A DNA stretch of 62,706 nt, the filler included, from Diploschistes diacapsis (Eukaryota): assembly GCA_023645945.1 (NCBI GenBank). It is 15 parts of 15 records of this genome, joined end to end, with 100 filler letters (N's around TTAATTAATTAA, not from the genome) between each part and the next. Parts side by side here need not be neighbours in the genome. Positions count along the whole stretch, not along the records: positions 3,070 to 24,419 come from JALAIB010000310.1; 14 more parts are not named here. One strand, given 5' to 3'. The notes under the pieces were generated by a model. The model was not told the DNA's origin, made no database searches, and saw only the letters and a list, made by a program, of their open reading frames with translations. Of this stretch, positions 6,881 to 38,307 are shown piece after piece. How positions within the stretch are numbered: the first letter of the stretch is position 1; each line of letters starts with the position of its first letter. The position numbers were made by a program, and so were the translations under genes.

Positions 6881-9800
6881 TTATGCAGCAGCATTACCGC
6901 TGGCGCCGGCGCCGCCTCCTCGTCTCCCTCTTATAATAGCCCCACCTCTCGAGATTCCGGTAACGGTCTGACCAACAGGGACGCTACTAGCTTCTCTGCT
7001 AGCTGGGTCTCCACCTTCTTTACTCCCTCCTCCCTGCTCCTTGGCTTTCCCCATGCTCCCAGCGGCGGCACTACCACCTCTCCTACCTCTCCTACCCCTG
7101 GATCCCCTGCCGCCCTTTTCATTCCTGACCTTTGCCGCTTCTTCAGCCTCCATCCTTGCTTTTGTCGCTTTTTCTTCCTGGTTCCACCACTCCTGGAACG
7201 CCTGCTCCTCTTGGATTTCAATGAGAGAGCGTTTAGCGGCGACTTCCTTGAGTATGTCCTTCTCTGACTGCTGCTGCGCAAGAATATCCGCCATTGTGAG
7301 TTGGAGTGTAGGCTCCGCTGATGTGGGGTCGTGTTTGATGGAACGAGACGTCGTAAGAGACGAGGTGGAGGCGGAGGGAATAGGAGTGGGACCCGAGGGA
7401 ATGGTGGTGGCAGAGGAGGATGCCGAAGCTATCGGCTGGGATACATTTCGCTTGGGTTGCTGTGGAGGTTGCGAGGGCGCTGACGTAGTGGTCTGGTAAG
7501 AAGCTTTGCGCTGGGTCGTAATATTCCCAGGAACTGTCTGACGTAAAGTTAACGACGGGGAACGGCGAGATTTGCTTGCTGACGGGCTCGGAGGTGGAGG
7601 CTCTTTGGGGCCGCTGAAGATTTCTGTCAGGGACACCTTAGGGCCAACGGGCGCGAGCTGCCACGGCGATTGCTTTGGCTGAGAAGATCCTTGTGAGGGC
7701 GTTGCTGCGGGTGATGTAGGTGCAAGCTGCTGAGAGGTAGTAGCTTGCTGTCTCTGCTTTTGTTGCTGTCGTTTCCGCTCCTTCTGAGACAGCTTTCCAC
7801 CAGGCACTGACTTCACCGTGGAGTCGTTGCTTGCGCCAGAGATAGCCTTGGATATGTTGGACTGTCGTACTTCAGACGCTTGCGCCATGATTTGCTTCAT
7901 GTCTAATTTGTCTGCATTGAAGGAAGCGCTGGCCCATGGTGCTGCCGTATCAGGTGCCGAATAATGGAGCTGCCCAAGGGATCTTTGGTTGCCGAGGGAC
8001 GTGGGTAAATTTAGAGCAGAAACTGATCCTACTACCGGACTTGGTGACGCTGCACGCGACCCCTTGTCCCAATGAGATGATGGAGTTCTACCCCTAGAAG
8101 ACGGTGGAGTTCGAAGCTGCCAAGTGTCGTGTCCTTGTGCTAACTCTTGCGATTCGAGCTGTGGGCTCATTGTACCTTTATAGCTACTTGACGAAATACC
8201 GGAATCATCTTCCATGTCAAATACGAGATCTGAAGGAGACTTTCTTGCCACAAACGCAGGACTTTTCGCTCCAAGCACTGGGCTTTTGCCCGCAGCTCTT
8301 GAGAGCTTGCCAGCTCTAGCTTCGTCCTCGTGGAGACGCGACTGAAGGGCCATTGAGTCAATCTTTCTCTGACGAGACCTATCGAGCAAATCAAGAAGCT
8401 CAGGATGCCGGTCAAGCAGCTCATGTTCAGCTCTGCCGCTCTTTACAATCGGGAAAGCGTTGAGCTGATTTTGTCGGATCATCTCATTTAGATCTTCCAT
8501 CAGATCATCATTTAGCTCATCAAGAAGGCTTTTTTCACGTTAGGAGACACGCTTCTGTCGAGGGATTTGAGGACTTACCGATTCTCAAGCATGCCTTCCA
8601 GGTTGAGACACATGTACTCAAGGGCAGCATCTCTAAACCCAGTAACAGAACAAGGCGCGACTGCGTTGAGAAGCTGGCATACATTTCTGGAGGTCACTGA
8701 TCGCATTCAGCTACGGCCTTGCAGAATGGAAGCATACTCTTACCGTGTTTCCCAAGGACCTCCTGACACACCTGGGCCAGTCGATCTAGCATTAACTCGT
8801 TTGCAATAGCCATGACATCCAAGACCAGATCCAAGAATGTATCCAGGTCTGAAGCTTTGGCGTCTTCGAATATATCAACGCCCACGTCAGCGTAAAGGTA
8901 GCGAAGGACCAAATCGAACACTAATGGGTCGACATGTTTCAGGTCGACCTTGATGAGCTCACTAGGCCCGTCAAGCTCTTCTCGTCTCGATGATAACCAT
9001 CCACCACCAGCCCGGCCATTGAACAAACTATCAAAGAATGGACATCTTTGACAGATCAAAGCGCCATGGACCTTCCTATTATCGCCATCCAGCTCGATTT
9101 CTACATCTCCCGTCTCAAAAAAGTCGGCGTTCGTGATAACCCTGTCCAAATCCTTGTGTAATTGCTTTGATGGCTCCGACATCAATCTTGCAGCACGCTC
9201 TAAGCCTTTAAGTTCCAGCTGTCCTGCGACCTTCATCACTTCTGTTCGCACTTGACGGTAAGCGTAGGTCATTGTTGGAGCTTGTCTAGTGAATTGCCAG
9301 ACATCAATGATTCCATCGGTATAGACGTAGAATATAATATTCAGCAATGTCAGGATATCTATTCCTTGAAACAGAATGACAGCCTGGCCCTTCCTGTCGT
9401 ATTCTATTGACAGCACATCTGCGATGCTGTAGAAGTACTCCTGACTGAATCGCTGCAGTCCCGTCCGTAAAGGCTCGCTTCGAGCGGCCAGTAGGAAGGC
9501 ATGGCAGGGGATTCGAATCTCCGAAAGGGACGTACCCACCTCGACATCACACGTCGCCAAGTCGGTTTCGCTAAGCTTGGAGATGGATCTCTGGATATCT
9601 GAATCGATAGCTTTCGATTTGACAATACTCCAGCGGATCAAAGCAGGGCTATAGGAGTCCTTCTTCGGCATCCAAAACCTTGGCAGTGGCTCCTCTGTTT
9701 CCGAATCCTCAGTTGATGCAAGATCCCGAAACGGCAGTAGGCTGAAGACGTCCCTCCACAGGTTACTTGGCTCGACAGGAATTTGTTTTCTGAGCACATC

Positions 9801-11819
9801 GCAGTCTTTCCTGACCGTTGCGAAAGCACCAAAGGCATTGCTACGAACAGCAGCCGTGCGGGTCAAGCCGGGCACACGAGAGAACTTGTAGTCTTTGACA
9901 TGTCCGCCGGCAGTAGACGTGTCTTTTATTTTTGCGCGTTTCTCACGCCTCCATACAGAGCCAGCGGCTGTGCAAATAATCACAGATCCATCTTGTCCCA
10001 CATCAACATCTATTGCAGCCATGTGACTCTTTCGCAGTGACCATAGCTCTTGCGGTTTAGACAAAGCTCCCCGAATCTTGGCTGGGTTCGTAGTTGAAGC
10101 GTCTGGAGCTGAAGACTCGGATTTCAGGCTCACGGTGAAGACTGCCCCTTCACTGGAAAGAGCACATATGCTGCTGCCCCCCGAGCATATCTTCACCACG
10201 TGGTTAGACAAGCCGCTACGCCTGGCACCAAAGAAGCTGTTTTTTGCAAGCTGGAATGAGAAATTATCGAGGTCGAACTGAACTCTAGAGTACCCGTAAT
10301 TTGCAAAGACCCAAACCTCATGGTTCTCAAGCAAGCATATTGTGGCCTTATCAATGGCAGACACCATAACGATCGAGCTTGAAAACAGCGACGCAGCGAC
10401 CTTGCGCGGAACCACCTGCATTTCCAAAGATCTTGCGTCAGCGTCTACCAAGCCTAGCTGGCCTTCATTTTTGCCGAACGTGTAGAGCGAGGCTCCTGTA
10501 TGGACGATCGAGTGGGTTCGGGAAGCAGCGCACCCAATGACTATCTCACGCTTAAGTGGTCCGAATATTTGTCGAGGAATAAGCTGAATCTGGTCTTCAT
10601 CTCTCAAAGACTCGGTTGCTAGAGCATAGCCAAGCTGGCCGTAGACATTAGACCCCCAGCTGTGGATCTCACCATTGTCCGTCACTGCAAGAGAATGGTC
10701 CTGACCGAGCCCAATCGCTGTAATTTTCCGACTCGCAAGCCCGCCTCCACCGATCGGCGTAAATGAAAATCTCGTTTGGGTGTCACCAGTCCCGAGACGT
10801 CCTGCTGAGCCGTAACCACACATATAAAGGTTAGACTCGGGATCCATTGTCAAGACAGCGCTATGGAACTTCGCCAGCTGCACATCAAAGACGTTCGTAG
10901 GCCTAAATTGAACAAAGGCCGGCATGTTGTCAGGCGTGGGCAGTTCGGACGAGGCGCTTGAGCGAATCGAGGCATTTTCCGTCAGCGACGCCAAATGCTC
11001 TCGGTAGAGTTTTCGTATCAGGGGCAACGGCCGCTTGAGTGGTGGACGCTCCGGGAATTGGCGGTCATCCTCGTCCCCAAACCCGAGATTGAAATTCTTG
11101 TTCGAACCAAAAAAGTAGAATTCATCCCCATCGATTGCGGAGGCAGGGTCGAACACGGTCTGGTTTGGGTACCCATACTCGTCTTCGTCAGTCTCCTCCG
11201 AGGAAACGTCTGCGTTCTGTCCTGCACTGCGTGCAGAGAGCGCAGACTGATCGATTCTATGCGGCAATACCCGCGGCGCAATGGTCGTCCCATACACATC
11301 AAAGGGACTATTGCCCTCTTTATCCTTTATTTTGATAAGGCCGCCAGCGTGTGCGCCCGCATGCGCAGTCACGGCATCCTCGAAATCTCGTGCCATTAAG
11401 GCTCTGGCTATGGTAATATTGCCAAAATACAGCGCTCGGTGCAGTGACGTCCAGCCACTCTCCTGGTCTTGAACATACAGGTCTATCATCGGTGCCTGCA
11501 GCAGCGCTAAAGCAAAATCCGAGGCATTTTCGGCGCTCGAAGATGCCATATGGTGCAGAAGAGTAAGCCCATGACTATCTCTTGAGTTCAGCTCCGCTCT
11601 TGTGAGGGTTATACCCGCCGACTGCCTGCTGCCCTTGCCCTTGCCCTTTAACGCAGGCGAAGTTGATAGAGTCCGTCCTGGGCTTCCTGCTATCGCGCTG
11701 GACGAAGCGTTGGCGAGCGACGTTCGCGTATACGCACCGCTGAAAGTGGCGGTCGCCAACAGCTGGCGGAAGTTGTCAATGTCATCTTCGAGGTAGTATT
11801 TCCATAGATATTGACTCAT
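6881..11819 (-). CDS. Ankyrin + RCC1 + BTB/POZ domain protein (Btb1/IBTK-like Cul3 adaptor), 1613 aa; exons 11819-8744, 8696-8579, 8528-6881
   Basis: Ankyrin repeats (ESGWTSLHRALYFGN), RCC1 repeats (GRLGTGD, WGSNVYGQLG, FGKNEGQLG) and BTB domains (HAFLLAARS, HGALICQRCPFF). C-terminal SLIEIQEEQAFQEWW and RGG tail. Two canonical introns join the 1041-aa and 539-aa ORFs in frame. Confidence 0.92.
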
Positions 11820-12630
11820 ATGCCGGAAGGAGAAGAGGGGAACGGTGCCGAACCGTTCCCTTGTGTACCTCGCCCTCAGCGCCCCAGAGACGGGCGCGGC
11901 GGAAAGATAGGAAGGAAGGTCAGGAGGGTGTCAAAGTCGGCAGACGAGAAAGCGAGATGTGTGCTTATGTTCTTGGAACAATCTAGACTCTGATCGTCAC
12001 GATGCTGACTGAAAGTTTGCTGTAACGATTTCAGCTAAACAGCGGGATTTGCCCTAGAGAGTGAAGTCGATTAAAAGAGGGGGCAAAAAGAACTATAAAG
12101 TCGAGTAGGTGCCAGGTAAGTAGATCGCCTTGTCGTATCTACTGTATCCCGTCATGGCAATTGAAGGAGACTTGTTGTGCATAGACAGCACTGGCCAATC
12201 GCAAGCTGCCGATGCGCATGTGGGAGACGGAAAAAATAACTTCTCCATCTTGCGCGCATTTCGGCTATAAGGTGACTCACACTATACCTAGAGCCTTGGG
12301 TGGCTGTTTCGGAGACAAATATCCCAATATCATCAACTTCAGGGTGTTTGGATTCAGGAGAACGAAAACGTTCAGGACTACTCTATCTGCTAATGTCTGC
12401 AAGGCATCTAACTAGCTAGTCCAGTATGGTTCCCTTGCCTTGCTGCGCTACTGCAAGACATAGAAGCGGTGAGGCTACCGTGATTCGATGCAAGGTCCTT
12501 GCGCCAAACTTTGTTGACATATCAGTCTCTATCATTGGCCAACAAGCACAATGCGACTCAAGTTTGCAGTACAATGTATGTGCAAGGAGGTACGTACGGG
12601 AACAAAGAACCCCCTGTCGATCGCCATTGA

Positions 12631-14681
12631 CTATAGCCAGTCCCTGAGGATCTTCCTGTTTTTCTTCAGTACCTGATTCAGTTTCTTCTCTGCCACCTCC
12701 GCTTCCTTCCTAGTACTCAGTAACAGCTCTTCCGAGGCCTTCAACGTCTGCTCCGCCTCTTCCACCGTCATCATCGCCATACGCGCCTCGATTTCGTCAT
12801 TCTCTGATTGTGTGCGCGGCGGATACATAGTAGCATACTGGGGCTCCTTGCTATCAGGCCTCATGATCGAAGCCGCATACTCTTTGAGCAACGCCTCTGG
12901 TGTGCCTGCATCTGCCGCCTCGTCATCATTACTATCAAGTGGCGGCGCAACTTGGTGGCCCGAGAGAAGGTCGTTGCTCGTAAAATTCAGCCAGGCGTCG
13001 GCGGGGTATGCGGGGGACGTGAAGCAACCAGCTGTGGCATGGATGAACTCCTTGCGTAGCTCGATGTAGCGCTTTGCTTCCTCGTGCGAGAGATGGCGGA
13101 GGACTGAACGATCTGGAAGCACGACAGCGTACTCCTGTAGATAGACTCTCTTGGGGATACACTCGCCTTGGTCTAACAGCTTCTTTTCTTGACTTGTAAG
13201 GTGGACGAAATCGTCGTAAGCAAAGTTAGAAGCAATAGCGGTTTCGAAGCGAGTATTGACTCCACTGGGGCCAAGAAACAGGTCCAGCGTGGTGGACGAT
13301 ATGACCCCTGCTTTCTTGAGGTCGGGAAAAATTGCTGCTGGCGTCATTCCCGCTCGCGGTTGTACACTGATAGACTCAACAGGTGTGGTATTTTCTGTTC
13401 CAGACTCTTCTACTACTCGAGCTCTGCTCCTCTTGCTTACTGCCATTTCCTTGGCCATGGTGATGGCCTCTTTAGTTTCTTGATCCCTTTTTTCCATGGC
13501 AGCCCTGTCTTCTACTTGAGGAGATGAGACCTCAGAATCGGCTCCTGTCACGATACCTAGGGTTGCTTGTGGCTTCTTGGACTTTTTCTTTCGGCCTATA
13601 ATGGGTGCCTGGACGATTTCTTCTTGCACTGGGCTCGAGGTACTTTCCTCAGCAAGTTTCGCTTCCTCAACCTGCTTCGCTCTTGCTTGTCTATCCTTTT
13701 TCACTTGGTTTCTACTCTTCTGAGAGGCTGGCCCGGTGCCAGGTTTACCACCAAAAGGCGACGGTGGTCTTGATAAAGAAGCAGATGTCAACGAAGCATT
13801 GTCAGAAATTAGATCATTGACTGGCGTGCTAGGCTGTTTGGCTGGCGCTTGCTTCTCCTGCTGTAAAGATCGTTTGGACGCCACAGAGGTGAAGGCAGTG
13901 CTTTCCGGCGGAGGAGTTACTATCTTTTTAGATACATCAATCTTGGCTGGCGGGACAAGTCTTAGGGTGCGTGGATTTCGAGAGGCGGGTAAAGTGGCCT
14001 GCGATGAGTTGGTACCTGAAGAACTCGGTCGCGAGCTGTCGACAGCGGCTGAGCTTGAGATAGATCTTTCAAATGAGTTTTGCGGGAGCTGCTGGATTGG
14101 TAAGGTAAATTTATGGGCCATGTTCTTCAAGTCTGCTGGAGTCTTCGGCTTGGTCTTTGCCTTCACGGGCGAAGGTTTCACAACCTTACTTCCAGCGGCT
14201 GCGGCTGCAGTAGTCGAAACCCCTGCATTTTTAGGCGGTTGTGGAGCGGATTGGACCTCCCCAGTAGTACCGGCAGCTTCGGATTTTTGACTGGTTTGTT
14301 TAGATCGCAGCCCCGACTTCAAAGGGCTCTTGGTCTCTTCCGCCCTTGCGATCTCCCTGGGAGGTGATTCTTTGGGAGACTTGTCGGTCTCCGCTGGCCT
14401 AGCGATATCCTTCGGTGGAGGGGGATGCGAAGCCGTCGGCATAGAGTGATTTTCTGCTTCACCACCCGAGAAAATTGGAGGAACTGGAGAGTCTTTTATA
14501 TCGGCATTGCGTTTGAGGGGGGCAGTAAGGGGTGGAAAATCAGCTGACATCAGTAGTCCTGGAGGTGTTGCGGGAGTGATAGGAGTAGCCCCTTCAGTTT
14601 TCAATGCGGCGACGGGAGGTGGTTGTTGCATAGAGGGCTTACGATCATGCTGGATGATCGAGGTAGTGTCGTCGATTGGAC
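12631..14681 (-). CDS. NOT4: Alternative 3' terminal exon of NOT4 (contains the 666-aa ORF); C-terminal coiled coil
   Basis: Branch site GACTGAC and acceptor TAG at 14684-14682 lie 50 nt upstream of the ORF ATG with an open frame. The acceptor is phase 1, matching two phase-1 donors in NOT4 exon 4. An independent gene is not excluded. Confidence 0.7.
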
Positions 14682-15204
14682 CTAGAGTCTCGAGTCAGTC
14701 CCGTTTGCGGCCAAAGTGCGCCAGTGAAGAGCAGGGCGAATCAGCAAAGCACACAGGATTAGGCGGGCGGCGGGCTTAGGCTCTTTGCTACGGGCGAATG
14801 ATCCTCAAATCGTAGGCGTATGTCAACGAAGTGCATGGAATCTATCAGAGGACGGAGAGTGTAAGAAAGAGCGTTTGCTGGTAGTCCATCTGCATATAGC
14901 AGAGGAGAAAGGGTTAACGTACAATGCGATCCGTTTATTGAATAATGCTGATGCGACAGTATAGCCCAATTCATGCCACCGGGATAAATGTGAATTTTGA
15001 AGCCTCCCATAAGAATTCATATGCCGGTTGCAACGCCATTCTCAGTCATGATGCCTGCACTAGCTGTTTCGTGCTGTCCACAACCATCGAAAAAAAGCCA
15101 CCTTTTCCATGACTTGGGTGCATATCATAAGAATCGTAGGTCCCGGAAGCGTAACCAGAAATCAAGGCTGAATAAAAGGAAAGCATGTTCCATCGTGTTG
15201 TGCT

Positions 15205-16333
15205 TCACCATCGGCCACCAAACCCACCGCCGCCATACATCATGCCCTGAGAGTTGTACCCACCTTGATTCTGAGCATTGCCATAAGGCCCCTGTCCAAC
15301 GCCAGTGTGGTGCATTCGAGCCTGAAGAATGCTTGGGTCCGCAAGATCTACTGTCGCACCTCCTCCAAAAGAGGAAGTGTTAGCATGTCTGTGCCTCTTT
15401 CCCTTCTTCTTCGGCTTTGGGGCTAGCTGATCTTGATATACGGAAGGCACACCAACTTGATGACCACCAGAAGTATATAGACCACGGGGCGGTGTAGGGG
15501 TGGATGCAGATGCTGGGTAAGAGGGGACTATGAACTCACGCTTGCCTTGGTCTGCACCCATGTTATTCCCACCAGTCAATCTCCCACGCATAAGGTCCCT
15601 GGCGTTCTCATCGTTCTTGGTCCCTAAGTTTGAGGTGAAATTGCCGCCACCAGCCATTGCACTAGCAAAGCCATGGCCCTGACCGAACATACCTCCGCCA
15701 CTGATAGGCGGAGTACCGCTCGCCTTGAGCCCTGGTGGCGGTCCTTGGACGCCAGTATAGAAATTAGTATGAAGACCCGTCTGCGTGCCCTGGTGGCCAA
15801 GAAAATTCTTCTGCTGTGTATGAGGCATCATTGCAGATTGCTGTGCTATCAATTGCGCATTTGTAGAGGGCTTAACGACAGTCGAGGCAGACGACGTGTC
15901 GTTCGCGAAGGTGAACCTGGAGGTATGACGCCCATGGCGAGATAACGAGCTTAGGTGCTGGTTTTGCGATTGAAAAGGGTTTGATAATTGAGAGTGATGC
16001 TGGCTTGTGTTGCCACTTGATACACGCCGTGCTTGGTCCAGGCTAGGATCCTGCTGCGTCATTCCTGACTTTAAGAGGGAAATATTGCGCTGTTGTTGTG
16101 GAGTCAAGCTTCGACCACCCATTGACATATTAGAGAATTCGTTACTCATCGAAACTTGCCTGTCGAACGGCTGTGTATCGCCAGAGAAAAGGCCAAATGG
16201 CGTTTGGCGTCTGCTATTGTTAGCAGCTCCCGGAGCGTCATCGCCGTTCTCTGGTTCCCCGCCTAGCTGTAAGCTTCCACCAGCTAGATTTTCTTCATCT
16301 TCAGGCACGCTCAGAGCTTGCTCGGCTTTTTCT

Positions 16334-16365
<32 letters not shown>

Positions 16366-17963
16366 TTCTTCTTCTTCTCCTCCTTCTTCTCCTTCTTCTC
16401 CTTCTTCTTCTTCTTCTTCTTCTTCTTCTTCTTCTTCTTCTTCTTCTTTCCGCTCTTCTTGTTCGCGCTGCTTTTTGGCATGTAATGCAAGGCCGCCGTT
16501 TGGATCGATCAAGGGCGGGTAGTTGTCGATTAGGTCCATAGTTCCTTGATCGTAGACGTTGCGGTCCAGGGACCAACTGAAGTCCGTGCTGCCAACGACC
16601 TTGAATGCTTCCACTAGGCGCGACAGGGAAGCCGGTAACGGCGGCTTTGATGTTAAGCCCTTTGCTGAGCCACTTGGAGATGAAGAAGGTTCTTCCGGTG
16701 CTTTCGATGTTGGCTCGGACGGCGCTGTGGAAGGCGGACAGGCCGCCTGACTTTCCGGTCGCAGAATGACCAGCTTTGGATGCGTAGTTTTGGGACTTGG
16801 CGTGGCACGACTGGCTGCCTGGCTGGATCTTCTACTCTGCTCAACTTGAGGATTCTTTGCCCAGCTCGCTGTTGTTGGCAAAGCAGAGCCCTCTCCACTA
16901 TCACTTCGACTCATAGCTTCAGCTTTGACAGCTTGAGTACTGGAAACTTGAGCAGCTGGTGGCGTAACAGTCGCCTGAGAAGACTGCGCCAGCACAGGGA
17001 CCGCGTTAGCCATTCTCGAGGAACCCGAAGCTGAAGCACTTGGAGCAAGGCGTTGGGAGGATGCAGCGTTAAGTGATGAAAGGTCAGCGCGACTGAAGCT
17101 GTCACTGTCATCGCCCGTCTCGTGCAGAAACATGCAACTACGGTTCGTGCATCTTTCGTTCCTTAGGAAAGCAGAACAGTATTTTGTGGTGCCATATTGA
17201 GCACTTGGACGACATCAGCTCACCATACACGATTTGGGAGCTGCTACTTACCGCAAGACCCGACCTTCGTGTGGTGTTCCATCCACCGCTGCTATGCACA
17301 TTCTTGCATCATCCTTGTTCGCGAATGTCACATATATACCAGTTGACTGCCCCGCGTAACCCTCTTTAGCTTTGCTAGCCACAATCTTGATGATATCTCC
17401 GTACTGTCCGAAGTGGTTTTGACCCCGCAAGGTTTCGAGAGCATTTTCATCACCGCTGATATCCATACCGACAACATAGACTAGATTCTTCTGCAGCACT
17501 CGAAGACCTGCCAGGTGTTTGCGATTCAGTGTCTCCACTTGCCTCCGCTCAGCCTCTTTCTGTCTTGCTGCGGCCTTTTTCTTTGCTTGAGCAGCAATAT
17601 CCGCCTTGAACCTTTACTATGTAAGCCTGGATATGTGGGCAACATTTGACACAAACCTACTCCTCGGGGCTAACCATCTTCCATTCTATGGTTTTGTCAT
17701 CGTACGGCCGCCGACATGCTGGGCAAAGCCCGTTCATGTTTTGCTTGATGTTGTTGTAGCAGAATTGACATACTTGATAGCCGCAAGGACATGGCTTGAA
17801 GTTTTTGTCGGAGAGGTCAAATTCTTCCACGCAGAGGGGGCTACACCGAAAAGGTCAGCATCGCCTCACACTGTGAACAAGACAAAAACCGTTAGTCAAG
17901 GTCTGCTTACCAGGTATCATCACCTTCGTCCATAAAGGAGTCTTGTTGTAATCGGTTGACCAT
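15205..17963 (-). CDS. NOT4: CCR4-NOT subunit Not4 (RING E3 ligase, RRM, CCCH); short isoform 863 aa; exons 17963-17911, 17840-17661, 17611-17252, 17203-15205
   Basis: C4C4 RING CPLCVEEFDLSDKNFKPCPCGYQVCQFCYNNIK..GLCPACRRPY; RRM LRVLQKNLVYVVG..FGQYGDIIKIV; AQYGTTKYCSAFLRNERCTNRSCMFLHE. Spliced length is 2592 nt, in frame. Confidence 0.96.
16330..16448 (-). repeat. (GAA)n microsatellite encoding a poly-Glu tract in Not4
   Basis: About 39 TTC/TCC triplets on the + strand, giving EEEEEEEEEEEEEEEGEEGEEGGEEEEEEEEEEEEEEEE. Confidence 0.97.
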
Positions 17964-18290: not shown

Positions 18291-19288
18291 ATGGCCGCGC
18301 GATCAAACGTAGCGAGCAAGCTGCAAGTGGTTTTGCGGTCTTCAAGCAAGCCGTCGTCAGTGTCAGCGGTTCGCCCATTTAGCTCGGCGTCCCGGCGGTG
18401 GAAAGACATTGCCTCTCAAGATGAAGTACCCAACATGCGCCATGCTGCTCGACCTCCTCGTATGCAATGTCCTTTCCTATTCCATTCTCAACATATCTGC
18501 TGCCGCTCAAGGGAGCACCTTATTGCGGACGGCCCATCCTGCTGCGATTGCATCACAACTAACGCCTCGCAGCATCCGGCGACCTTAAAGCCCCCGTCGT
18601 AAACCCCGCCGACAGATACTCCTCCAAAGCCAGCGACTTGCACAGCTACGGGCAATACCTGACCTCTTGCCTACCCAAATACATCCAGCAATTCTCCGTG
18701 TGGAAGGACGAGCTGACAATCTACATCCCGCCCGCGGGCGTGCTCCCCGTTTTCTCTTTCCTCAAATACCACACTGCCGCCGAGTTCACCATGGTCGCCG
18801 ACATCACCGCCGTCGACTATCCGACAAAAGACCAGCGCTTCGAAGTCGTCTACAACCTCCTCTCTGTCCGCCACAACAGCCGCATCCGCGTCAAGACGTA
18901 CGCGGACGAGGCGACGCCCGTGCCGTCCATCACCAGCCTGTACGACGGCGCCAATTGGTACGAGCGCGAAGTGTACGATCTGTTTGGCGTTTTCTTCGTC
19001 GGACACCCGGATCTGAGACGGATTATGACAGACTATGGATTCGATGGACACCCGCTGAGAAAAGACTTTCCGTTGACGGGCTACACGGAGATCAGGTACG
19101 ACGAAGAGAAGAAGAGGATCGTTGTCGAGCCGCTGGAGCTGTCGCAGGCTTTCCGCAACTTCGAAGGGGGCACGGCGGCGTGGGAGCAGGTGGGACCGGG
19201 GAAGGATAGGAAACCGGACAGCTTCAAGTTGCCGGATCCGAAGCCGGAGCCGCCGAAGGAAGGGGAGCAGCAGGGGCAGAAGAAGTGA
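18291..19288 (+). CDS. NDUFS3: NADH:ubiquinone oxidoreductase 30-kDa subunit (NDUFS3/NuoC homologue), 294 aa; exons 18291-18459, 18573-19288
   Basis: Arg/Ser-rich presequence; [53 protein letters not shown]. Intron GTATGC..CTAAC..CAG. Confidence 0.97.
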
Positions 19289-24298: not shown

Positions 24299-24519
24299 CC
24301 AAGTAAAATACTGTACTGCACATGAAGTGTCGGCCGTGCCGCCTTGGAAGGATGGACTATAGGTGGTTAGAGTCATGGATCAACATCCGGCGTTTGTTGG
24401 ACAGCTGAAGAAGAACTTCNNNNNNNNNNNNNNNNNNNNNNNNNNNNNNNNNNNNNNNNNNNNTTAATTAATTAANNNNNNNNNNNNNNNNNNNNNNNNN
24501 NNNNNNNNNNNNNNNNNNN

Positions 24520-24699
24520 GAGCAGGGCACATATAAATACTGGGTGCCAGCCCTACTGCCCTACGGGGTTCAACCCTTGAACCCACAAACGATCAGGATG
24601 TTCCAAATGCTTCAGGAACCCCGATGCATTGTTTCCCTATTACACTATATGTAGGTGCGCAGCTGTGGTAGCGGGGAATCTATGACCCTGTAGGTCACA
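24520..24699 (-). mobile_element. Mosaic short LTR (modules A+C), truncated by the contig start
   Basis: Minus strand starts TGTGACC. It shares CACCTACATATAGTGTAATAGGGAAACA with 29122/39567 and TTGGAACATCCTGA..GTGCCCT with 26777. Confidence 0.7.
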
Positions 24700-24899
24700 T
24701 TATTAGGCATAATGAAATCATTAATATTTAGAATTTAACTTTGTTCAGAATTTTAATGTAAATTCATAAAAAAAAATCTTACGATCCTAATAACTTTAAT
24801 ATATCAAGATATTTACTTGCGATCCGCTTGGAGAATGTCAGAATACTAACCTAAATAGGTTAGTCAGATTGTTTACTAAGCTTTTAGTATGTTCGAATA

Positions 24900-25240
24900 T
24901 TCTGGACGGTTCTAGAAGGTTCTAAAATATTCTAGAACTGAAACGCCAGCGCAGGAACGGATGCTACACTACCGGGGGCTGAGCCTGATCCAGAAGAATT
25001 ACGTGTAACTGGCATCTATAAATAAAAGGTTTCGATTCGAAAAGCTAAAGAAGAAACTATCTAGGTAAGAGGGTGACATATATAAATAATATGGGTACCA
25101 GTTTTATCAGAGTTCGGGCATTACCCGCCTATATAGCCACCCTTTAACATCCTTCGCGCGGCTGGAATCGGCTAAAAGCGGCTATCCCGGTAAGACCCGT
25201 CATGTGATTCTGCCGTGGTCATGTGATCCTGCCGTGGCTT
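24900..25240 (-). mobile_element. LTR-derived segment sharing module D with 26920-26975
   Basis: 24964-25020 is the near-identical reverse complement of AGATGCCCAGTTGCACGTAATCCTTCCGGATCAGGCTCAGCCCCCGGTAGTG. Boundaries are approximate. Confidence 0.55.
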
Positions 25241-25785
25241 AGTAAATATCTGGGCTAAGCAGTTTTATTACCCTCTTATTTAGATGTTTATATTTCTTAT
25301 AAGCGCTATATACTTTTTTAGGCAATTTATATCTCTATATTTATCCTTTTGTTAGATTTCTTTAGAAAGATGTTCGTTATTTTTTAATATTTAACGCTCC
25401 TATATTTTTGATTCCATTTTAGCGTCGTTCTTAATTAAATATGCTTTTAGATTTTATAAGAAGGTAATCGTCGTGATAATCGATATCGTTTTATCCCAAA
25501 GATCCACTCCCGTCTATAATTTTTGCTGACGTTAGCTACCTATCCCCGAATACTGTTAATTACGGAGGTCTTATCTTTTTAAGATTTTAATCGATGAAAC
25601 TTTTATAGGATATCGAAAGTATTTTCGAAATTAATAACGAAATATTAACTATCGTCGGGTAATGTGTTTGACGGGGATTCCGGCCACCTAAAATCAGTAT
25701 TTTCATCTTACATTGGATCTTCCCCAATAATGACTACCTCGTATCGTAATAATTCGATTTTAATAAAATTTAACATCAACGACTA

Positions 25786-25953
25786 ACGTATATGCATAGC
25801 GAGCGGACACTCATAGCGAGCGGACACCCTTCTCGATTCGTACGAGTTACAATTACATTTGTGTAATTAATTCGTACGATATTTTATTATATTAATTATT
25901 AGTATCTTTTTTAGAAGCTATAGATTTTATTTTATAAATTCGCGTATTACGCC
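25786..25953. mobile_element. pogo/Fot1-type DNA transposon end (TIR)
   Basis: TA followed by ACGTATATGCATAGCGAGCGGACACTCATAGCGAGCGGACAC: an ACGT terminus with an internal ~17-bp direct repeat. Second copy at 62441. Confidence 0.8.
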
Positions 25954-26053
25954 NNNNNNNNNNNNNNNNNNNNNNNNNNNNNNNNNNNNNNNNNNNNTTA
26001 ATTAATTAANNNNNNNNNNNNNNNNNNNNNNNNNNNNNNNNNNNNNNNNNNNN

Positions 26054-26300
26054 GACACGGACATTATATTATAATAAATGCACGGATATAGACACCGCAA
26101 TAAAACCTTTCTCGGCACGGACACTAACACGGACACTATATTATAATAAAAACACAGACACGGACACTATAATTCAAATTTTTAAAATATGAACATTAAT
26201 ACGGACATTGCATTTCCGTGAATCCACGGACACGGACACTGCAGCTAAAAAATCTAAAACACTGACACTGACACTGTCAGTGTCAGTGACGGCCAGCCTA
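26054..26300. mobile_element. MITE copy (TAGGCTGGCCGT family), partial
   Basis: Ends GTCAGTGACGGCCAGCCTA; CACGGACAC subrepeats. Confidence 0.9.
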
Positions 26301-26776
26301 CTTTAAATATAAAGCGGATGTTTATTTTAGTAATTTATATGGATCTTTCGGCAGTATTATTTTAATTTCACGTGTATAGTACTATCGGTTCTATCTAAAT
26401 CTTTCAACTTCTTTTTTAATTCTCGATTATAGAAATTAATTTAGGTATATTATCGAAACGTACCGCTTTTAATTGTTTACCGCTTTAGAATTTTACATTA
26501 AGTTTTTACAGTTGTAGAATACGAATAGCATTCTTTCGAGTTTTGTAAAGAATAGACTAGATTTTTCGCGAGTAATTATTTATAATCTTTATAAGGTACT
26601 GATTGTTGTTAAGTAATCTTAAAAAGGATTTACAGATATCGATATTTATCAAATTTAGGATGTTTTATTTATATTTAATTAAAATACGGCCGATATGTTG
26701 CTTAGCTTTAATTAATTGATATATCTTACACGTATAAGGTGCGACGCGGATCGGATTAGCGAGAATCGTAACTTCG
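26301..26776 (-). mobile_element. RIP-degraded Copia integrase remnant
   Basis: TCKIYQLIKAKQHIGR..ILNLINIDICKSF..IINNYSRKI*..KAVRFDN corresponds to the Zn-knuckle end and DDE core (DICGP, DNYSR, RSDN) after RIP. Confidence 0.8.
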
Positions 26777-27050
26777 TGTAGGTTTGGAACATCCTGAACG
26801 TTTGTGGGTTCAAGGGTTGAACCCCGTAGGGCGGTAGGGCTGGCACCCACTATTTATTTGTGCCCTCCTCCCACCTAGATAGTTCCTTCCTTACCTTTTC
26901 GAATCTGAACCATTCAGCCTACAGATGCCCAGTTGCACGTAATCCTTCCGGATCAGGCTCAGCCCCCGGTAGTGCAGACCTATTCCTGTAGGGGCGTTCT
27001 AAGGTTTTAGAGTTTCTTAGGTCCTATATGGGTTATGCGTGCGTGTTATA
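26777..27050 (+). mobile_element. Solo LTR-like element (modules C+D)
   Basis: Termini TGTAGG...TGTTATA (RIP of TGTTACA). A GC-rich island in AT-rich DNA that shares modules with 24520-25100. Confidence 0.6.
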
Positions 27051-27199
27051 GTTAATAACTGTTCTTATTAAACTGAACTTTTGGGTTTAGTTTAGGTTTA
27101 GGCTGAACTCGGTTCAGATTAGCTGGTTTAAATTCAGCTATTGGGTACGTAGTTGTTCTATACGTATATTTTCCTTTCGTAATCTTGCTCGAGTAATAG

Positions 27200-27487
27200 A
27201 TTATTTTTTGATATATAAGAATGATCCGACCGTCGTCGTCGTATAAATACAGATTGTTTTAATTAAAGTTCCTCCCTAATTTTGTTTTATATAACTTTTA
27301 TCTCGATATAAGATTAACCTTTAATTTCGGAACGTATATTATATATCTTAAATATAAAACGTTATTATCTTGCTTTAATCTAATTTTCTTAGCGTAATTT
27401 GAATAGAGCATTTTTCCCCCGATTTTGATTCGTCGTTTTCGAATAGGAGTTAAATGTCTAAATAAATGTAGCTGATTAGTTATATGT
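27200..27487 (-). mobile_element. RIP-degraded Copia protease-region remnant
   Basis: HITNQLHLFRHLTPIRKRRIKIGG...IIYVPKLKVNLIS matches the Copia HM...YVP.L..NLIS pattern. Confidence 0.75.
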
Positions 27488-27587
27488 NNNNNNNNNNNNN
27501 NNNNNNNNNNNNNNNNNNNNNNNNNNNNNNNTTAATTAATTAANNNNNNNNNNNNNNNNNNNNNNNNNNNNNNNNNNNNNNNNNNNN

Positions 27588-27960
27588 ATATAAAGGAGAT
27601 CGATTAAGAAGGTTTTCGTGGTTTATTTATTACGAAAGCTAGATGGGATTTTTTGTAAATAAAATATTAGGCGATAACTAAACTTAAACGTCGCCAATTA
27701 AATCTTAAATTCGTCAATTATAAATTCAAGAAAGGCACGACTATTTAAGAAGTATGGATGTATTTAATAAAACTTTTAAAGAAGTTGTCGTATAAACGAA
27801 TCGAATACGCCTTAAAGGTTCTTTTTTAGTAATTATTTGTAGTATTGCCGCCTGATTACGGAGTTATTGTCGACGTTATTAACACGTAAATCGATAGTAT
27901 TTTATTCGTTAATATCGATTTCGATAAATAATTTAATAAATTTATCGATAAGTAAGATAA
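27588..27960 (+). mobile_element. RIP-degraded Copia gag (UBN2-like) remnant
   Basis: KARWDFL*IKY*..LKFVNYKFKKGTTI*EVW..LPPDYGVIVD. A second copy lies in reverse at 38308-38632. Confidence 0.65.
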
Positions 27961-28123
27961 GCTGATAGAAAAGGTTATAGTATATTTTTTAAGTTATGAC
28001 AAATCATAGTATTCTGGAGGCTTCCGTTTTTAAAAACGATCCGACGAAAGACGACACCGCCATTTTAGCCTAATAAGAGGATATCTATTTCATAAAGACA
28101 ATAATTATCGCGTAATATAGTAC

Positions 28124-28414
28124 TAGGCTGGCCGTCACTGACACTGACAGTGTCAGTGTCAATGTTTTAGATTTTTTAGCTGCGGTGTACGTGTCCGTGG
28201 ATTCACGGAAATGCAGTGTCCGTGTTAGTATTAATGTTTTAAAATTTTTAATTGTAGTATCCGTGTCCGTGCTTTCACTGCAGTGTAATGTCTGTGTCAG
28301 TGTCCGTGTCCGTGTTTTAAAACTTTTGCTGTCGTGTCCGTGTCAGTGTCCGTGTTTTGAAATTTTTTGCTGCAGTGTCCGTGTCAGTGACCGTGGCACG
28401 AAACGGCCAGCCTA
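28124..28414. mobile_element. Complete MITE, 291 bp (TAGGCTGGCCGT family)
   Basis: Perfect 12-bp TIRs TAGGCTGGCCGT / ACGGCCAGCCTA; internal GTGTCCGTG repeats; no transposase ORF. Confidence 0.93.
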
Positions 28415-28707
28415 AATTATACTGCCGGGATGTTTCGTCGTTATCGCTTATTTATCCAATAAATCCTTTATTTAGGGCTTATAAGAAGGTTATTCTTTTC
28501 TCGATTTAAGTTCTCGTTCAGGGTAACTACTGGCGAAGTGTCTCTTCTTATACTAGTTATAACAGGTTTCGTTGTTGATCTATTCTTTAATAAACATGGT
28601 CGGTTTCTTATTAATTATATCGACGAAGGTTTTAAATTCTTTCTTACTACGATTTTTAAAAATTCTTTAGGGACAAGAAATGTACGAACTATTATTTCGG
28701 GTATTAA

Positions 28708-29020
28708 TGTTACGATCCAAGGTACTAGGCAGTAGTACTTGGCACGTAACAGCTAGTCGGGCACTTCCCAACCATTCCTTGTATATAGTCCAATTAGGGT
28801 GACACGGGTCACGTGACGAATAGAAGGTCTGAAAGATCATTCTATCTAGTTATAAGTAGAAAGGGAGAATGGTAATTTTATTTATTTATTTTATTAAGAG
28901 AGTTATTAGTTATATAAGAACGTCGTTATGGCCTTTATAAATCTAAAATGTGTTTATTTTTATAAATATCTTTAATTATTACTCGGGATTAATTTATATT
29001 CGTTATTTTTATTATTAAAG
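28708..29020 (-). mobile_element. LTR family L1, partial
   Basis: Begins TGTTACGATCCAAG; reverse complement of ~2310-2629. Confidence 0.85.
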
Positions 29021-29121
29021 NNNNNNNNNNNNNNNNNNNNNNNNNNNNNNNNNNNNNNNNNNNNTTAATTAATTAANNNNNNNNNNNNNNNNNNNNNNNN
29101 NNNNNNNNNNNNNNNNNNNNA

Positions 29122-29284
29122 TGTAAGGCCTGCGGGGTTACACATCTGCCACCTGCTGCCACAGCCACGCACCTACATATAGTGTAATAGGGAAACAGTG
29201 CTTCGGGGTTCCTGAAAGCATTGTGGTTAGTCTTTTGGCTCAGTGGGATAGCGCTACCTATTAGGCACTACCCCCGCTGTTACA
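29122..29284 (+). mobile_element. Short solo LTR family L2 (163 bp; modules A+B)
   Basis: Termini TGTAAG...TGTTACA. The 3' ~130 bp is near-identical to 32186-32322 and 39600-39736. Confidence 0.85.
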
Positions 29285-29756
29285 AACCATCTTATTTAAC
29301 GTACTTTATATTAAACGTTTAATCCTCGTCCGGAACCATATTTAACGTCGAAAATCTTCTCGATCTCTTATTCTTTTCCGATATCTATTTCTATCGAAAG
29401 TAATTTAGGATATTCTTATCCTTCCAATAAATCCCGTAAATTTTTTAAAAATAAAAACGAATAAAAAGTTTTAAACTATTTTATCGACGTAAATAAATCC
29501 AGTTCGTAATCGACGTCGTTTAATTTTCGTAATACGTTATATGGACCGCTTTATTTACTATTCAGCTTCTTGCAGGCCCGGGTGGTTCTAATATTACATA
29601 TATTTAACTAAACTAAATCATTAGGATTAATCTTTTTAACGAGGCGTCGATGCTCGTTCGCGTATGACTTTTATTTTTACTATATTAAGACTATATATCT
29701 TTTCGCGAAGTTCCAGATATCCTACATAATTTCGACGATAGTATTAATATTTTAAT
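29285..29756 (-). mobile_element. Chromovirus (Ty3/Gypsy) integrase C-terminus with GPY/F motif and chromodomain, RIP-degraded
   Basis: NIRTTRACKKLNSK*SGPYNVLRKLNDVDYELDL...E*EIEKIFDVK...*YKVR*IRW. Confidence 0.85.
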
Positions 29757-29922
29757 TAGGCTGGCCGTCACGGACACTGACACGGCCGTGGCAGTATCCG
29801 TGTTTTAAAATTTTCAGCCGTAGTGTCCGTGTCCGTGCTTTTACTACAGTGCAGTGTCCGTGCCGAGAAAATTTTCGCGGTAGTGTCCGTGTCAGTGACC
29901 GTGGCACGCAACGGCCAGCCTA
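29757..29922. mobile_element. Complete minimal MITE, 166 bp (TAGGCTGGCCGT family)
   Basis: Perfect 12-bp TIRs; fewer internal subrepeats; barely mutated. Confidence 0.93.
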
Positions 29923-30653
29923 CTTAAGAACATGTCTATTAAGGAACCTACGGCCTATGCTGTGAAGAATTCTACAAAATTATCCGTATTAGGGGATAAA
30001 TTGGCGTCTCGACGAGTTATTTTATTAATATGATCGCCGTATTTACCATTTTGTATTTCTTAGGATCAGTCTTGGCTATTAAAAACCATGGATTCCGGTA
30101 CGGTCTTTAATAGTATTCTAATATCCCAGTATCGATTCGTTCTTGAAGCATTTTTATTATTACCGGTTTTAGGGTTTTTGGAATGCGAAAGGATTTTATT
30201 TGTTATGTTTCGTGATCGATGGTGTTTATTTCTTAAGGCGGCGCAACCTCTGGGCGTATGCGTCCTATATAAGAGAAATCTTAGGTTAGAGTTGCTTTCC
30301 GATTTGATAATACTTTTAATAATAATGTTCTTTTTTTTTAATAAATTGCTTGCTTATATTTAGGGCCTGTTTCCGTTCTTCCGTAAAACGGTCCCTTTTA
30401 GGTATTTATGAAAACTTTAGAATAATAAGATCTAAATATTCGTTATTTAATATTATTCTTGCGGTTAAAATCATTTTTTGTAATTCCGCTTCTTTTTATG
30501 CAGACGAGTTTCTTAACGTAGCACTAATATTCGGATTAAGTTTGTCGTTAAGANNNNNNNNNNNNNNNNNNNNNNNNNNNNNNNNNNNNNNNNNNNNTTA
30601 ATTAATTAANNNNNNNNNNNNNNNNNNNNNNNNNNNNNNNNNNNNNNNNNNNN

Positions 30654-31642
30654 TCTGACGCTAGATTAAATACTTGAAAACCTTTAAGAATTAACTTAAA
30701 CGAAAAAGCAACGTACGCGTTTCGTATTTTAAAAAAAGTTATAAGTAAGTAAAAATACCTTCGAAAGAAAGTTTTCATTATTAATAATCGGAAATATTTA
30801 AATCATATACTTTTCGACGAATATAGAAACTTCGGATATAATTACGCCAGGCACGAAACACTAATATACGTCTTTTATAAAAAGATAATTATTAACGTAA
30901 CATTCTAACGATACTACGAGGAAGTATTATATAACAATAAACACGAGGACTATCGTCTTTTATACGACTATAAGACAAAGGGATGTCCGGTTGGTATACA
31001 TAACGGAAAACGAACGAAAACAGATCCATCAACGATAAAAAAAATCATTATAATAACAGAATTCTACTTCGTACATAATACTTATCGTGTAAAAAAGTAC
31101 GAACATCTAGATTACGCGAAGTTCTACGAACCAAAGAACTGCCGTGATAAGAATTACATGATTTTAATATATCACGATTATAAATTTCGGTTAAGAATCG
31201 TAAAAAATATAAAAGTTAACGAATTAAATTCTATATATCCTAAACACGAAAATTAGAACGACTTTTATTATAAAAATAAGAGATATAAATACTATCGCAA
31301 CGGAACATATCTTATATAAAAAGAAATTATAAAAAAAGTTAGAACTTTTTAGTTATAAGTTAAACTAAAGAATTATATACTATAAACATAAGCGCTAGCA
31401 CGCGGACTTAAATAAAACGAATTTAAACCGATTTCGAAATTAGATTAAAACGACATACCGTACGAGTACTAATTAATTTAAATATTATTATAAACGCTAT
31501 CTTAATTTTATGTCTATAACGATTAAAGATAAAGAATTACGAACTTATATAAAAATATACATTCAAAACCGTGACAACACGTAACGCTTTACAGGTCATT
31601 AAACGTACGTTATCGTTAATAATTAAGATCTTAAAGCATATT
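30654..31642 (+). mobile_element. RIP-degraded Ty3/Gypsy gag-protease remnant
   Basis: Cys/His-rich gag-like segments, then VRVLINLNIIINAI at ~31460, which is a transition-only derivative of the aspartic protease motif ALIDSGAT.NAI. Confidence 0.55.
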
Positions 31643-32076
31643 TGTTATGATCTCTATCTCTACAAGGTAGACACGAGGTATTGATCAAGGTGGGTTTGGT
31701 TTCGTTTAGAAGAGGAGTGCAAGCAGGAGAAGAAGGTAGAGCAGTCATAAGTTTGACTGTCTCTGAAAGAAGGTTCTAAATGATAGAAATAACGAATATA
31801 GATTGATCCTAAGTAATGATTAAGGATGTCTATAAAAATAAACACGTCCTAATAAGAAAAGGCTATGGCGACGTTCTTATATAGTTTAAGTTAACAGCCA
31901 GTTATCGATAACAAGCTATCGTAACAGCGCTGTTATTGATAAATAATTATCCCGAATAAATTTATTTTTAATAAATATCTATTAACGGGTATCTGTTAAT
32001 TACGTAACCCCTATTACCGTGATTAGTTATATATAGAAAGCTAGGACGTGTTAAGTTTAATATTTGGATCGTAATA
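31643..32076 (+). mobile_element. Solo LTR, L1-related (shared 5' half, different 3' half)
   Basis: TGTTATGATCTCTATC...GGATCGTAATA. Aligns to ~2176-2420 and then diverges. Confidence 0.8.
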
Positions 32077-32185
32077 TTATCTTTTNNNNNNNNNNNNNNN
32101 NNNNNNNNNNNNNNNNNNNNNNNNNNNNNTTAATTAATTAANNNNNNNNNNNNNNNNNNNNNNNNNNNNNNNNNNNNNNNNNNNN

Positions 32186-32322
32186 TCCCCCTGCTGCCAC
32201 AGCCACGCACCTACATATAGTGTAATAGGGAAACAGTGCTTCGGGGTTCCTGAAAGCATTGTGTTAGTCTTTTGGCTCAGTGGGATAGCGCTACCCTATT
32301 AGGCACTACCCCCGCTGTTACA
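32186..32322 (+). mobile_element. Short LTR family L2, partial
   Basis: Essentially identical to 39600-39736; ends CCGCTGTTACA. Confidence 0.88.
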
Positions 32323-32652
32323 TTATCCTTCTCGATCTCGTTTTTTTCGAAAGGATGATCCGTTCGATTATTTTTTATATGATAGAAACATAATCCTTTT
32401 TATTAGACTCGGTATAGCGAACGTATTTTATCGAGACGGAAAGTATTCTGATATAGTCGTGAAAGAATAGGCAATGATTATAAGATAGTATATTTAGAAA
32501 ACCCCGAAAACGAATAATAGAATTTAGGCGTTTCTTTTATATCGAAGATAAAGAAGACATCGCTGTTCCACGATTTGGAACTTTTTTTTATTTAATACTT
32601 ATATTAACCCTTCGGTGCTTGTCGGGTCGATAAAGTTGAAGGAAAAGGATAA

Positions 32653-33109
32653 TATTACGATTTAAGGTATTATACGATAATATTTGACACGCAATAGTTA
32701 GTCGGGTATTTCCTAATTATTTCTTATATATAGCTTAATTAGGGTAACACGGGTCACGTAACGAGTAAAAGGTTTGGAAGACCGTTCTATTCAGTCGTGG
32801 GTAAAAAAGAAGAACGGTAATTTTATTTATCTATTTATTTATTCCGTTGAGGGAGTTGTTAATTATATAAGAACTTTTATTATAGCTCCGTTAAGTTTTA
32901 GTATGTTTATTTTCATAAACATTCCTAGTTATTACTCGGGATCAATTTATATTCGTTATTTCTATTATTAGAAAGCCTTCTTTCCGGAGATAATTTAAGA
33001 TCTATAATTGCTTTATCTTCTTCTCTTATTTGCATTCTTCTTCTAAACGAGACTAAACTTATCTTAATCAATACCTCGTGTCTATCTTATAAAGATAGAG
33101 ATCATAACA
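32653..33109 (-). mobile_element. Solo LTR family L1 (~457 bp)
   Basis: Reverse complement of 2176-2629 with transition-type differences; ends GATCATAACA. Confidence 0.85.
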
Positions 33110-33123
33110 TAAAGGTGTTAAAA

Positions 33124-33270
33124 ACGGGTCAATTACCCACGTCAACGACGGGTCAATTACTTACGTCAACGACGGATTAATTACCCACGTCAACGACGGG
33201 TCAATTACTTATGTTAACGACGGGTCAATTATTCACGTCAAAGACGCATTAATTACGCACGCCAAAAACG
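33124..33270. repeat. 24-bp tandem repeat (ACGGGTCAATTACCCACGTCAACG), ~6 units
   Basis: Units are directly visible and differ mainly by C>T. Confidence 0.92.
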
Positions 33271-33717
33271 CATCAACGATAAAGGTAAAAGTTCAGCTAA
33301 ATTATACTAAACTTGCACCATTTACTCCTATCGAGGATCACAGTATTTTAAAGGCCTCTACTTCCGCTCCATATGACCAACCCGAGCCAGATGATGGTGG
33401 CCGACGGTTAATAAAAAAGTTCTTACGGGTTAAAGTTTTAAAAAAAAGAATTAAATTTAAACCCAAACTTGAACCTAAATCTATTAAATCGAATATATTA
33501 AAACCTATTACGTTAATAACGGGCGTTATACACGTTATTAATAACCCGATTACGCATACAATACCCGTTAACGCCACGTTAATAACGTTTAATATATAAG
33601 ATTCTTAAACAATAAACNNNNNNNNNNNNNNNNNNNNNNNNNNNNNNNNNNNNNNNNNNNNTTAATTAATTAANNNNNNNNNNNNNNNNNNNNNNNNNNN
33701 NNNNNNNNNNNNNNNNN

Positions 33718-38207: not shown

Positions 38208-38307
38208 NNNNNNNNNNNNNNNNNNNNNNNNNNNNNNNNNNNNNNNNNNNNTTAATTAATTAANNNNNNNNNNNNNNNNNNNNNNNNNNNNNNNNNNNNN
38301 NNNNNNN

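Follow-up and report, generated by a model that had tools for sequence, protein, structure and literature searches.

The NOT4 locus of Diploschistes diacapsis

We analyzed 62,706 nucleotides (nt) of Diploschistes diacapsis DNA (GenBank assembly GCA_023645945.1), referred to here as the window, in which contig G000:C2336 carries a minus-strand fungal NOT4 gene with exons at 17963–17911, 17840–17661, 17611–17252 and from 17203 onward. An earlier note on this DNA, the original prediction, had proposed that an orphan open reading frame (ORF) of 666 amino acids (aa) downstream of this gene is an alternative, uncharacterised tail that nearly doubles Not4. Our analysis indicates that this ORF is the C-terminal, last exon of NOT4, apparently specific to filamentous fungi, and we consider it probable that the locus as a whole combines this terminal exon with an old alternative-splicing switch of filamentous ascomycetes.

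The encoded protein has the NOT4/CNOT4 domain order, with RRM_1 on exon 3 and, read by eye, the cysteine pattern of a RING on exons 1 and 2; the CCCH-finger match is weak (Pfam E 0.2). Homologues are named NOT4 and carry PF14570, and the closest named relatives are lichen-forming fungi, e.g. Xylographa. By sequence, the gene appears to encode a NOT4/CNOT4 protein with an N-terminal C4C4 RING followed by an RRM and a CCCH finger. The coordinates given in the original prediction were reproduced: the ORF runs on the minus strand from an ATG at 14631 to a stop at 12631; a GACTGAC branch site at 14700 and a TAG acceptor ending at 14682 lie before this ATG, the acceptor 50 nt upstream and open in phase 1; and two phase-1 donors (a slash marks the splice site) are present in exon 4, AAGC/GTGAGT at 15539 and CAAG/GTGGGT at 15263, the latter 19 residues before the stop at 15205. 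We call these donors D1 and D2, respectively. DFPPL at 14541–14527 and IIGRKKKSKK at 13602–13573 were also located as claimed, and recomputed product lengths were again 863 and 800 aa for the short forms and 1527, 1464 and 1435 aa for the long forms. The last intron, from D2 to the tail acceptor, is 582 nt. The original prediction overlooked a third conserved donor, D3, between the short stop and the tail. The features are as follows.

17911..17963, minus: NOT4 exon 1, start codon at 17963 (exon model and translation)
17661..17840, minus: NOT4 exon 2, RING cysteine pattern (translation; PF14570 in homologues)
17252..17611, minus: NOT4 exon 3, coiled region and RRM (Pfam RRM_1, E 8.8e-06, above cut-off)
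15205..17203, minus: NOT4 exon 4 to the short stop, 863-aa form (open reading frame)
15351..15539, minus: exitron, 189 nt, 63 codons, donor D1 GTGAGT at 15539, CAG acceptor at 15351
15384-15379, minus: exitron branch site GCTAAC
15411-15385, minus: basic motif KKKGKRHRH, encoded inside the exitron
15264..15350, minus: exon 4b, 87 nt, from exitron acceptor to donor D2
15258..15263, minus: donor D2, CAAG/GTGGGT, in frame with the tail
15205..15263, minus: short-form C-terminus, 19 residues, ending GGRW-stop
14842..14922, minus: nested post-stop intron, D3 to TAG acceptor at 14842 (acceptor inferred by homology)
14682..14700, minus: branch site and TAG acceptor of the tail exon
12631..14681, minus: putative tail exon, 683 codons in long forms, 666 aa from the first ATG (single copy in the genome)
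14527..14541, minus: DFPPL, candidate RACK1-binding FPxL motif
13573..13602, minus: basic motif IIGRKKKSKK in the tail
13036..13341, minus: small predicted alpha/beta domain in the tail (AlphaFold2 model residues 94–195)
12634..12807, minus: predicted terminal helices, coiled-coil-like (model helix 286–328; conserved in alignment A2)

The tail ORF has the anatomy of a NOT4 exon

Scanning metagenome contigs confirmed 118 NOT4 stretches, 80 of which were kept. Once 14 duplicates, 2 truncated loci and 3 loci lacking an anchor had been removed and the window added, there were 62 distinct loci, which reduced to 34 representatives at 85% identity. In all 40 loci with at least 1900 nt of downstream sequence, the tail ORF lies on the same strand as NOT4, 375–761 nt past the short stop. 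A branch site followed by a YAG acceptor at the front of the tail ORF was found in phase 1 in 21 of 21 non-redundant loci including the window, compared to 0 of 21 in phase 0 and 2 of 21 in phase 2. The first methionine of the stop-to-stop ORF falls anywhere from position 1 to 466, with no fixed start codon, and in relatives a start codon is often absent before a conserved DFPxL motif. Because of this linkage, the phase-1 acceptor and the variable first methionine, the tail has the anatomy of an exon rather than of a gene.

Database matches point the same way. Among 3747 candidates in the length range 1167–3330 aa, 13 match the last 337 residues of the tail, and all 13 carry the NOT4 RING, so that the label 'orphan' does not hold. 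Tail residues 330–666 match Not4 of Aspergillus and Histoplasma at E values of 1e-4 to 8e-4 and Not4 of Xylographa at E 4e-28, and the window tail appears to be a C-terminal extension homologous to that of the long Aspergillus Not4. A long Not4 protein is already known and is the standard annotation in many Pezizomycotina; nor is the tail uncharacterised, since the long form has been described and truncated in Aspergillus fumigatus (PMC7773993). The original prediction asked whether homologues are always fused to NOT4 or adjoin it, which was so for 13 of 13 long matches (fused) and 40 of 40 loci (adjoining). One Emmonsiellopsis assembly annotates the tail as a separate 686-aa gene.

That split annotation weighs against a terminal exon, as does a search of 50%-identity representatives in which 94 of 99 matches were stand-alone tail ORFs, 4 were full-length NOT4 proteins and 1 (P0212, a repeat protein) was spurious and was dropped. 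We read the stand-alone entries as probable ORF calls blind to introns. If the tail were instead a separate gene downstream, driven by a promoter of its own, the fused models would be prediction errors; the predominance of stand-alone ORFs in the database, the split Emmonsiellopsis annotation and the position of the window ORF's ATG 50 nt past the acceptor would fit such a gene. However, there is no conserved start codon, and often none before DFPxL; coding similarity begins at the phase-1 acceptor in 21 of 21 loci; and the in-frame donors upstream are conserved. Moreover, none of the 40 testable loci had a tail unlinked from NOT4, although these loci were found via NOT4 and unlinked copies would be invisible among them, and the window's own genome has a single copy. 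We regard an independent gene as exceedingly improbable.

Donors D1 and D2 are conserved as RNA, and D1 opens an exitron

All 62 distinct loci carry D1 as a phase-1 GTGAGT. In a codon table of 33 aligned rows (a 34th was off by one column and has the same bases at D1), the D1 arginine is CGT in 33 of 33 and the D1 glutamate GAG in 33 of 33, compared to 14% and 51% in the rest of exon 4; at D2, GGT is used in 29 of 33 and GGG in 25 of 28. Codons adjoining the donors, nearby arginine codons included, vary freely. Because the donor codons are fixed while neighboring codons vary, both donors appear to be selected as RNA. D2 is found in 29 of the 34 representatives (AAG/GTGGGT in 25 and a variant donor in 4 more); in the other 5 it is unrecognisable, which counts against the proposed switch.

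The window exitron has canonical intron signals within an open coding exon and a length divisible by three, as expected of an exitron. Of 34 representatives, 28 keep its branch site and acceptor intact, with exitron lengths of 183–204 nt. The 6 representatives in which the branch site or acceptor is not intact keep D1, as would be expected if D1 may also serve to skip directly to the tail. The exitron is retained in three loci (L028, L034 and L041) and spliced out in a Histoplasma model, P0233, which is from a different species. The ratio pN/pS, obtained from crude counts on a protein-guided alignment that lowers such ratios, was 0.04 for the exitron basic motif, 0.33 for exon 4b and 0.49 for a constitutive linker, suggesting that the retained exitron sequence is selected as protein. 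The motif resembles a nuclear localisation signal (NLS) and may act in localisation. RNA structure is not clearly indicated for the exitron (mean z −0.6).

A GC donor at 15545, 6 nt upstream of D1, was rejected as the main exitron donor, as the GT at 15539 is the invariant one. Together with tandem CAG/TAG acceptors (15351, 15348), it would allow in-frame variants 1–3 aa shorter; tandem TAG acceptors are also seen in several relatives. Two sets of fixed codons suggest splicing-regulatory elements: GAC (34/34) and CCG (29/31) just past the exitron acceptor (15339–15334, minus), and AAG in 27–33 of 33–34 loci, over a background of 63%, in the exitron lysine run (15411–15394, minus). Many relatives (L015, L017, L022, L023, L042, L056 and others) have FPxF or FPxL just inside the exitron, a possible second RACK1-type motif that the window lacks.

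The short form ends in a C-terminus that appears selected as protein

The terminal tryptophan of the short form is present in 33 of 34 representatives, while the penultimate arginine uses all six codons, and pN/pS of this C-terminus is 0.38. A tryptophan also lies within three residues of the end in 114 of 120 exon-4 ORFs (the best 120 of 862 matches), a sample biased because the query included the short end. These patterns suggest that the short C-terminus is under selection as protein. Introns present upstream in close relatives are missing from L028 (3), L034 (3) and L041 (1), all of which keep the exitron and the short stop, and we read these loci as transcript-level evidence of the short form in relatives; L075 is a weaker fourth intron-less case. 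Histoplasma H88 is annotated both as a 1526-aa protein and as a 781-aa short form minus exitron (QSS57802.1), and H88 gene models were transferred from RNA-seq transcripts (PMC8725592). Annotations that we fetched, all of them models, include long, long-minus-exitron, skip and short forms.

Several points weaken this evidence. The L028 assembly could be a mosaic of isoforms; that QSS57802.1 stems from the PMC8725592 assemblies is our inference; and a similar 781-aa model without a strain label, QSS66365.1, may be a prediction. In addition, none of the 80 loci yielded a transcript with D1 or D2 joined to the tail, and the long junctions are argued from conservation and gene models. The proposal that the ORF is a spliced NOT4 tail, with short and long isoforms that each occur with and without the exitron, is upheld, and all four forms are probably real.

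If only long Not4 were functional, the read-through form would be unproductive RNA bound for decay. A post-stop intron and a 3′ untranslated region (UTR) longer than 2 kb are features that trigger the nonsense-mediated decay of mRNA (NMD) in Neurospora, and long forms are frequent in annotation. Set against this, the 19-residue end is conserved as amino acids, with synonymous freedom and a fixed terminal tryptophan, and the RNA-seq-based Histoplasma model encodes the short form. We consider a long-only gene highly unlikely.

A third donor opens a putative nested intron behind the short stop

D3 (T/GTACGTTAAC at 14922) lies 282 nt past the short stop and is the most conserved element between that stop and the tail. 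The pattern T/GTAYGT, which was tuned on the same loci in which it was counted, is found in 50 of the 52 distinct loci whose downstream sequence reaches 650 nt or more, compared to a mean of 0.34 in shuffled sequences and 1 on the reverse strand. Of the two misses, L073 has a near match and L028 has had the intron removed: relative to L030, a 54-nt GT-AG intron ~320 nt past the stop is precisely absent from L028, whose contig extends from the short stop past the tail acceptor and into the tail exon. By analogy with L028, the window would have an intron spliced well downstream of a stop codon. Its nested intron is 81 nt, with a small hairpin and a non-consensus branch site, CTTAC, at 14865.

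A long duplex flanks the nested intron in 21 of 30 representatives (mean z −3.6); a shifted control gave a mean z of −0.2 and 2 of 30. Several pair types per duplex column were seen in the 20 loci examined, where pairs were taken from each locus's own fold and do not constitute an unbiased covariation test. The stem is not significant in the window itself (z −0.5) or in 8 other representatives, which weighs against the proposed switch. A hairpin within the nested intron has modest support (mean z −1.36, with 19 of 33 below −1). RNAalifold gave no consensus structure for the nested intron from 18 sequences, and Rfam searches returned one chance-level match (E 0.77) for the window stretch and none at the gathering score for 8 loci. 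In seven loci (L022, L051, L061, L063, L064, L072 and L079), donor and stem are strong and the near acceptor, at ~+60 to +140 relative to D3, is unclear; there the tail acceptor may be the main partner of D3.

These observations bear on how short and long forms might be chosen. The original prediction invoked competition between splicing and polyadenylation in 14682–15204, a proposal that finds little support here. The window has AATAAA at 14939, and the contigs of L034, L041 and L075 end 431–636 nt past the short stop, as cleavage in this interval would predict; however, AATAAA occurs in just 3 of 21 loci, the three contig ends have no poly(A) run, and L028 continues past the tail acceptor into the tail exon. 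As poly(A) signals in fungi are degenerate, the scarcity of AATAAA is weak evidence; what is most strongly conserved in this interval is a splice donor, joined in many relatives by an RNA stem. A choice among donors, or retention, is the better fit. We consider it unlikely that cleavage and polyadenylation make the choice, although they may coexist with a splicing switch.

A model for a probable NOT4 splicing switch

In the model that we favor, the last ~900 nt before the tail would act as a splicing switch with three donors and one distal acceptor. Joining D1 (15539) or D2 (15263) to 14682 would yield long Not4 (1435, 1464 or 1527 aa); when neither donor is joined to the tail, read-through of D2 to the conserved stop would give short Not4 (863 or 800 aa), and the exitron would independently add or remove its basic, NLS-like motif. 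The third donor, D3, is strong; in one relative it has been joined to a weak acceptor close by, and it may compete with D1 and D2 for the acceptor of the tail as well. Splicing of D3 to either acceptor would place an exon junction ~280 nt behind the short stop and could thereby trigger NMD, and the short mRNA may carry both the post-stop intron and the whole tail exon as its 3′ UTR. As an exon junction after a stop codon triggers exon-junction-complex (EJC)-dependent NMD in Neurospora, the short-form mRNA would probably be held down; for D3 splicing as the means of doing so in this gene we see the chances as evenly balanced. The fullest version, a structure-gated three-donor switch between a RACK1-docking long form and short forms that differ by the NLS-like exitron, autoregulated by NMD through the post-stop intron, is offered tentatively.

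The tail as a candidate docking arm

The original prediction also described a folded-looking segment and a terminal coiled coil in the tail, and both have counterparts in AlphaFold2 models. For the last 329 aa (68 sequences), pTM was 0.37 overall, with a confident small alpha/beta segment (pLDDT ~90 at model residues 141–190) and a long terminal helix at 286–328 (pLDDT ~90). Pfam placed no family on the 666-aa ORF and gave only single weak matches among 68 aligned tails; sequence searches of the Protein Data Bank with the tail gave 0 matches, and an ESM Atlas search gave no usable match. Foldseek returned no match at E ≤ 0.001, from a list dominated by the terminal helix and without a separate search of the small domain; the best VIA match (Z 5.4) also came from that helix, and a single-sequence model of the small domain (pLDDT 46) was too poor for searching.

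Two short motifs recur. Of 21 tails, 14 have [DE]FPxL within their first 330 aa, where 0.11 would be expected; the motif is also present in 41 of 71 tail ORFs of medium length and in all 22 full-length proteins fetched, a set that includes many close relatives. The 7 of 21 tails that lack DFPxL in this stretch speak against the favored model. GRK[KR] is found in 18 of 21 tails. The window motif fits the FPx[LF] core of the RACK1-interacting motif, and the long tail would be a mostly disordered docking arm that combines the FPxL and basic motifs with a small folded domain and, at its end, a coiled coil. Given the FPxL match, docking of long Not4 on the head of the 40S subunit is our best functional guess, and we give about even weight to binding of RACK1/Cpc2 there. 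A complex prediction for Letharia RACK1 (P0259) with tail residues 15–50 scored 0.02, a value that decides neither for nor against binding.

Other features of the locus

Exon 4 contains ~40 mostly glutamate codons at 16330–16446 (minus; a GAA repeat). As the four close relatives inspected have only a short acidic stretch there, this run has the look of a microsatellite that expanded in one lineage. A second branch site and CAG acceptor, both consensus-like, lie in intron 1 (17871–17910, minus; acceptor at 17871); their use would give a 22-aa product and is possibly an unproductive splice; a stwintron was ruled out at this position by misfits of frame and length. The neighbors of NOT4 are a 1078-aa ORF at 8694–11930 (minus), which we take to resemble ankyrin/RCC1/BTB proteins, and a divergent ORF at 18563–19288 (plus), presumably related to the 30-kDa subunit of complex I. 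All of the elements discussed above sit on one uninterrupted contig; 24420–39837 and both ends of the window contain paired 44-nt runs of N every ~1530 nt, apparently an artefact of assembly or joining.

Comparison with known systems

In filamentous ascomycetes that are only distantly related, a core ubiquitin ligase of mRNA decay and ribosome quality control appears to have kept two coding donors and an exitron, together with a short end selected as protein and an intron behind the stop. Few documented cases of alternative splicing in fungi are both deeply conserved and protein-changing. A switch of this kind would explain why database annotations give ~800 aa, ~1500 aa or two genes, even within one Histoplasma strain, and the FPxL motif offers a concrete, mutable handle on what the fungal tail does. 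The switch appears not to have been described before: search listings, which reach few subscription papers, gave no published account of NOT4 splicing isoforms in filamentous fungi, the main texts of PMC5640933 and PMC8216456 contain no not4, mot2 or ccr4, and a literature search for conserved exitrons in filamentous fungi returned only unrelated plant and algal papers.

The closest studied counterpart is Not4 of A. fumigatus (XP_750771.1), which is ~2 times the length of the yeast protein and whose C-terminal region is reported to occur in filamentous fungi alone (Shwab et al., 2020; PMC7773993); its phosphopeptide S919 falls in the region homologous to the window tail. In the available text of that paper, Not4 is treated as one protein and neither 'splic' nor 'intron' appears. 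Truncations raised Not4 abundance and altered its localisation. By offset from T638, the 1–693 truncation stops ~4 residues short of the D1 position; it is thus similar to what all isoforms have in common, and it would also remove the RNA switch, so the higher abundance could partly be an RNA effect. Yeast Not4/Mot2 and human CNOT4, the RING E3 of CCR4-NOT, share the same RING, RRM and CCCH N-terminal part (PMC12746107, in whose available text 'filamentous' is absent), and no homologous tail is reported for yeasts or mammals (PMC7773993).

The tail motif resembles the FPxL RACK1-interacting motif of ZAK, SERBP1, LARP4 and RNF10 (PMC12823453; bioRxiv 10.64898/2026.08.26.747346). The ZAK motif is FPPLIK, compared to the conserved [DE]FP[PAS]L of the tail; RNF10, also a ribosome E3, requires its FPxL, and human CNOT4 is listed with a predicted motif. 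Unlike motifs of the ZAK/RNF10 type, the fungal candidate, recognized from sequence, would be isoform-specific.

At the RNA level, the likeness is to Neurospora. Zhang and Sachs reportedly described NMD triggered by 3′UTR introns there in 2015. PMC7746235 and PMC10578600 state that 3′UTR introns and long 3′UTRs trigger NMD in N. crassa, EJC-dependently for introns. The window would share with these cases a spliceable intron far past the stop in a translation-related gene; it differs in that its intron is nested in a larger intron of a coding isoform, with a donor that could compete with two in-frame donors. In the N. crassa TPP-riboswitch intron, long-distance pairing is linked to 5′ splice-site choice (PMC3597705), and conserved base pairing in a long fungal intron is common to both systems; unlike that intron, the 8 loci and the window stretch have no TPP aptamer or other Rfam family at the gathering score.

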